From contig NC_058382.1 of assembly GCF_018350175.1 (NCBI RefSeq), positions 7,254,001 through 7,318,000 on the forward strand: DNA of 64,000 nucleotides, given 5' to 3'. Shown in pieces: positions 43,965 through 50,975 of this stretch. A program made the translations under genes and the position numbers. How positions within the stretch are numbered: the stretch's first letter is position 1; each line of letters opens with the position of its first letter. The DNA is from Felis catus (Eukaryota). The notes under the pieces were generated by a model that worked only from the letters and a program-made list of their open reading frames with translations, was not told the origin of the DNA and did no database searches.

Positions 43965-50975
<7,011 letters not shown>

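Follow-up and report, generated by a model that had tools for sequence, protein, structure and literature searches.

The exon of the Felis catus KLK5 gene that carries the catalytic His ends in an atypical 5' splice site, CA/GTTGAGTG (the slash marks the exon end), and we consider it probable that this site is a working donor, bound by ordinary U1 snRNA in a register shifted by one base (+1) and cut before the GT at 46167. Positions are those of the window, which is the whole stretch of 64,000 nucleotides that was analysed. Positions 46160-46178, at the end of the catalytic-His exon, read CA/GTTGAGTGG; written in codons, the exon ends ...CAC TGC CGG AAG CA/GTTGAGTGGGG, with the GT at 46167-46168, and the longer context of the donor is ...GCC CAC TGC CGG AAG CA/GTTGAGTGGGGCT. 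The first-pass annotation had described the His exon of KLK5 as ending in an atypical donor with an extra T, and these letters confirm it. The features on which the analysis is built are as follows.

43965..44037, forward strand: KLK5 coding exon 1, with the ATG and signal peptide, 73 nt, ending in phase 1
45896..46166, forward strand: KLK5 coding exon 2, with the pro-peptide, the IVNG start and the catalytic His, ending ...AAG CA in phase 2
46165..46174, forward strand: the atypical 5' splice site CA/GTTGAGTG, positions -2 to +8, GT at 46167
46167..46690, forward strand: intron of 524 nt, GT-AG, with a G-rich start
46172, 46214, 46358 and 46464, forward strand: GT sites inside this intron, out of frame or beyond a stop
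46677-78, 46689-90 and 46698-99, forward strand: three in-frame AG acceptors, read from the sequence
46691..46947, forward strand: KLK5 coding exon 3, with the catalytic Asp (DLMLI), followed by an ordinary CA/GTGAGTGT donor
47072..47205, forward strand: KLK5 coding exon 4, ending DSCQ/GTAAGG
50820..50975, forward strand: KLK5 coding exon 5, with the catalytic Ser (GDSGGP) and the stop

The five coding exons total 891 nt, that is 296 codons and a stop, with phases 1-2-1-0 and no internal stops, and the TAAHC motif containing the catalytic His lies at 46144-46158. All five exon translations are identical to the Felis catus record P0079 (XP_003997529.1), the sole full five-exon match among the 18 records compared, and the junction Q-FFRIRL of the annotated protein results from the middle AG acceptor, at 46689-90. 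The records closest to the His exon are named kallikrein-5 and belong to cats and hyenas (96-98%), and the best solved-structure match of exon 3 is kallikrein-5 (2PSX, E 5e-48), the next being KLK4 (3e-19). Five coding exons, conserved phases, the His-Asp-Ser triad and KLK5 as the top match identify the gene as KLK5. The remaining KLK5 coding sequence had been called intact, and this is borne out by five exons without an internal stop and by the presence of the three catalytic motifs. A second copy or retrocopy of the His exon was also considered and rejected, since, apart from the locus, the own-genome search gave a single paralog, at 74%. KLK5 mRNA has been reported in cat tooth samples with a logCPM of 4.80, a gene-level value that is blind to the splicing of 46167..46690 (PMC7641192; papers given by PMC number, here and below, are cited for those parts of them that were available). 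A KLK5 row was not found in two supplements of a 13-tissue cat transcriptome paper, an absence that is uninformative because KLK6, 7 and 8 are missing from them as well.

The KLK5 donor stands apart within the kallikrein cluster. With the His exon as query, 36 matches were found in the cat's own genome; 25 of them were fetched, and 13 of these lie in the kallikrein cluster (contig C39). A purine occupies +3 in 12 of the 13 cluster His-exon donors, and the KLK5 site, with GTT, is the sole exception. The 12 paralog donors read GTGAGT in about 6-7 cases and GTATGT in two, the rest being GTAAGT, GTAAGC, GTGGGT and GTAGGG. In the window itself, the GTGAGT reported by the first-pass annotation for three paralogs, which it labelled KLK9, KLK8 and KLK6, was recovered at 1328, 8264 and 32785, and a fourth paralog His-exon donor, at 22979, reads GTATGT. 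The GT is found at the same phase-2 position in 12/12 of the other cluster loci; therefore, intron sliding from a phase-0 CAG/GTGAGT ancestor was rejected.

The position of the GT is also constrained by the protein, and 46167 is the only GT that retains both the catalytic His and the reading frame. The upstream in-frame GTs at 46083 and 46134 would remove the His codon, and those downstream, from 46290 onwards, lie beyond the stop that is met after 116 codons. With donors at 46172, 46214, 46256, 46358 or 46464, and with intron retention, a stop codon is met in every case. The earlier claim that 46167 alone keeps the frame, with 46172 out of frame, was therefore correct. A GC-AG intron using the in-frame GC at 46164 was rejected, no stable U1 helix being formed there in the normal or the shifted register.

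An extra base beside an identical base is a typical long-read indel, and the paralogs have GTGAGT, so that a 1-bp assembly error, or else a private allele of the sequenced animal, might account for the T. This explanation was examined with 106 sampled 31-mers from 45897-46946, which were compared with sequencing runs, 24 runs being listed with the holders ranked first. The share of words was 1.00 in 14 of the 24 listed runs, at a resolution where 105/106 would show as 0.99; a heterozygote too would score 1.00, and with this ranking the word shares cannot establish fixation. These 14 runs represent 14 samples and 7 studies of one organism; 11 of them are flagged as possibly being the source of this DNA, and three, in two studies, carry no such flag. 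Six RNA runs with shares of 0.06-0.93 and four unindexed RNA runs stand outside the evidence count. Thirty 31-mers span both T, and the chance that none of them was sampled is 0.037, assuming random sampling. Because of the full share in 14 runs and this low chance of a sampling miss, an assembly error, which the first-pass annotation had put forward, or a private allele appears very improbable. The hypomorphic allele that it had suggested is likewise unlikely in the sense of a rare variant, given that 14 different samples hold the words.

The pairing of the site with U1 was then compared between registers, with energies that are nearest-neighbour estimates and do not include pseudouridine. 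In the normal register the KLK5 donor makes three pairs and no stable U1 helix, in agreement with the poor pairing proposed earlier. In the +1 shifted register, 9 of 11 positions pair, with -6.8 kcal/mol. On the exon side this helix contains C-2:G11, A-1:U10 and G+1:C9, which are followed by a mismatch, U+2:C8, and on the intron side it contains U+3:A7, the wobble G+4:U6, A+5:U5, G+6:C4, U+7:A3 and the wobble G+8:U2. Unconstrained duplex folding returns the same shifted helix. The bulged registers reach -3.8 (+2), -3.0 (+3) and -1.5 (+4), and are much weaker here because position -1 is A. Recognition by shifted or bulged U1 pairing had been suggested for this site, with GTF2H1 and INPP4A named as examples of such donors; the shifted (+1) alternative is upheld by the computed -6.8, and the bulged one, at best -3.8, is not. 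The site thus combines what characterizes a shifted-register donor, namely weak pairing in the normal register and strong pairing in the shifted one that includes exon positions -2/-1 and +1.

For the 12 paralog donors, the normal register gives energies of -2.9 to -11.2 and the shifted one 0 to -1.6; the shifted -6.8 of KLK5 falls within their normal-register range. The donor of KLK5 exon 1, AG/GTAACC, has a dG of -6.6 in the canonical register. The same KLK5 exon end without the extra T, that is with a paralog-like intron start, also gives -6.8, and therefore no loss of U1 binding is predicted. The shifted fit is not independent of the observed extra T, since a T added to CA/GTGAGT yields it by construction. 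The proposal that the extra T may lower splicing efficiency is unsupported at the U1 step, where the energy is the same both ways, and an effect is possible at the later U6/cleavage step.

Two observations concern other members of the cluster. The His-exon donor of the locus near 7220030 of contig C39 in the same genome (G000; L008), GA/GTATGT, is weak in the normal register (-2.9) and has no shifted alternative. The loci L004 (7379264, forward strand) and L013 (7345283, reverse strand) carry similar His exons, with TAAHCINE, on opposite strands of the cluster, and the context of the first cysteine is altered in the inverted copy L013 (NRCRG); they are possibly a KLK1/KLK2-type pair with one copy degenerate.

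How well the shifted register fits depends on the last two exon bases, the energies being -8.1 for AG, -7.7 for GG, -6.8 for CA, -6.7 for CG, -6.5 for UG, -5.1 for AA and -3.8 for CC. CA ranks third of the 16 exon-end dinucleotides and is the top one among the 12 with a last base other than G. The window has 6322 GT sites when both strands are counted, and six of them reach a shifted energy of -6.8 or lower; the five other than KLK5 lie in SINE heads. These five have shifted energies of -7.5 to -7.6, better than the KLK5 donor, and are presumably unused as donors; therefore, U1 fit alone does not make a donor.

The SINE-head sites are at 18578 (forward strand), 53398, 17212, 10237 and 9684 (all reverse strand), with another in the region of 13460 (forward strand). 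CA/GTTRAGT is frequent in these tRNA-like heads, which we take to be those of carnivore SINEs. The heads caught by pattern contain it in 4 of 16 cases in the window and in 0 of 12 in 100 kb of other loci, and it apparently arises by CpG decay of CG/GTTAAGC. SINE heads might thus be a large pool of shifted-register pseudo-donors in carnivores.

In the mechanism that we propose, the site would have arisen through the gain of one T in a paralog-like CA/GTGAGT donor, a change of low cost because, once the register is shifted, the exon end CA would restore three base pairs. The predicted helix places ordinary U1 snRNA one base further downstream than usual, cleavage would still take place just before GT 46167, and late cutting by one base may lead to the loss of some transcripts. 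The normal U6/U5 contacts are poorly matched by the G at +4, the A at +5 and the exon end, the U6 positions being those given in PMC11162779. Function of the donor is supported by the intact coding sequence and by the conservation of AAHCRK-Q-FFRIRL across felid proteins, which are gene models and would use GT 46167 whether or not the cell does.

The step after U1 binding is where a different outcome may be imagined, with U1 shifted in the same way and cleavage leaky, through a cut one base late, retention of the intron or use of G-rich cryptic donors, so that cat KLK5 would be a fixed hypomorph. Reporter sites nearly identical to the KLK5 donor were cut at both positions (PMC6280755), and U6 pairing is not known, from the available part of PMC4856993, to move along with U1. 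A cut one base late, CAG/TTGAGT, makes a TT donor and moves the next exon into a reading frame that contains 4 stop codons, and retention and the five cryptic donors from 46172 to 46464 all lead to a stop, as described above. The G-rich GT sites at 46214, 46358 and 46464, with normal-register energies of -9.0 to -10.7 that are partly due to G-U wobble, could compete with 46167. However, a loss of U1 pairing is not predicted, the coding sequence is intact, the protein is conserved across 14 felid models and KLK5 mRNA is detected in the cat (PMC7641192), and we regard such a fixed hypomorph as unlikely. The same G-rich sites are also invoked in another explanation, in which the donor works without any shifted pairing, U1 being brought in by nearby G-rich GT sites, by G-run enhancers or as a variant U1, and U5/U6 picking the GT. 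In its favour, strong normal-register sites are found at distances of 47 to 300 nt beyond the donor, G makes up 51% of the intron start, and binding of U1 away from the splice site has been described (PMC4856993). Yet G-run density is no higher than in the paralogs, with five G-runs in +11..+70 of the KLK5 intron and 1-7 in the 12 paralogs, for which reason G-run enhancement was rejected as a special feature of KLK5, and the shifted register, with pairs at 9 of 11 positions, is the best of all registers. As to a variant U1, all 12 U1 loci inspected have an ordinary 5' end; these are the best 12 of 42 genome matches. Activity of the donor without shifted pairing is thus quite improbable, and binding of ordinary U1 in the +1 register with cleavage at 46167 is the reading that we prefer.

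Comparison of proteins places the exon end in an evolutionary context. The junction codon is split CA/A, and AAHCRK-Q-FFRIRL is present in 14 of 15 felid records (15 being listed of 19 felid-cluster members) and in two of three hyena records, the other two being without the exon. The junction residue is Pro in meerkat, dog, panda and sea lion. Among 102 fetched proteins, 91 have readable junctions, with Pro in 41, Gln in 28, Lys in 14, His in 3, Glu in 2 and other residues in 3, all of these being protein gene models. Gln is also found at the junction in cattle, deer, horse and others; therefore, the CA exon end is not cat-specific. An exact search of metagenome contigs for host DNA with the 26-base exon end gave 0 matches. 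Some records show peculiarities of their own. The 208-aa Puma concolor record P0080 is missing the whole His exon, through an assembly gap, an annotation failure or a real loss. The camel (P0001) and beaver (P0014) models have three residues fewer at the junction, as use of the last AG (46698-99) would give, and the baleen whale KLK5 records P0060, P0067 and P0069 are missing the TAAHC motif, which fits gene decay or poor models.

Perhaps the donor was born in two steps in cat-like carnivores, Pro (CC/) changing to Gln (CA/) and a T then being gained at no U1 cost, with a partial late cut dampening cat KLK5; we offer this history tentatively and with considerable doubt. With an extra T, the exon end CC that is implied for dog-like carnivores would give only -3.8, and if the history is true, the meerkat (Pro) and dog-like carnivores are predicted to be without the T. 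The split between carnivores whose exon-end codon is Gln (cats and hyenas) and those where it is Pro (meerkat and dog-like carnivores) leads to a sharp prediction of where the extra T can exist, and a true two-step origin would be a datable natural experiment on the birth of a rare donor class. The birth of a shifted-register donor can seldom be observed, since such donors are rare and those that have been studied are described as conserved; for KLK5, the ancestral type of donor is shown by 12 paralogs. Leaky cleavage, if true, would be relevant to skin shedding in the cat, where KLK5 acts, a role that is known for human (PMC3707919). In practice, standard splice scores would label the reference-type cat site as broken, and the damaging variants would be those at +6/+7.

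Both classes of atypical donor that resemble the KLK5 site have a history: shifted (+1) donors were reportedly treated by Roca and Krainer in 2009, and Bulge 1 (+2/+3) donors are said to have been treated by Roca et al. in 2012. A literature search that covered mostly titles did not find a paper on the KLK5 donor; this says little about whether one exists, and a KLK5 ortholog could be named among the shifted sites listed in Roca and Krainer 2009.

Donors of the Bulge 1 class number 54 human sites in Tan et al. 2016 (PMC4856993) and share the intron start of KLK5, since the supplement of that paper, in its available part, has 9 rows with GTTGAGT, 7 of them bulge +2/+3 sites. All of these rows have a G at -1, which pairs with U1 C9, whereas KLK5 has an A, and with bulged energies of -3.8 and -3.0 versus -6.8 in the shifted register, KLK5 was rejected as a Bulge 1 site. 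KLK5 is absent from the available supplement list of PMC4856993, which has no shifted-register rows. Noncanonical TT donors, such as FANCC c.165+1G>T and FBXO9 (PMC6280755), are also close, as the KLK5 site read one base later is CAG/TTGAGT, the pattern of the CAG TTAAGT sites tested in the same paper. In the reporters of PMC6280755, cleavage of CAG TTAAGTAg took place at the GT as well as one base further on, at the TT; for CAG TTAAGTGT the outcome varied with context, the GT being used almost exclusively in one and both positions in others. However, the KLK5 protein comes from the GT cut, and a TT cut would produce a frameshift.

The closest likeness is with the shifted (+1) register, which is an established donor class (PMC4856993, PMC11162779, PMC6280755, PMC9311317) whose members are described as often conserved (PMC6280755). 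Like these, the KLK5 site has a GT-AG intron, a consensus seemingly moved by one base, a CA exon end and a predicted U1 helix that is shifted by one with a mismatch at +2, and CA before the GU, together with AGU at +5..+7, is likewise found in the 'Shifted +1' oligo used for melting in PMC4856993. It differs in having G, not A, at +4, where a wobble is formed, in being known here from sequence and computed pairing, and in its cat kallikrein setting, where 12/12 paralogous donors are ordinary. The KLK5 donor leaves the known shifted-register mechanism unchanged and is most likely an additional member of a known rare class, whose mechanism has already been described.
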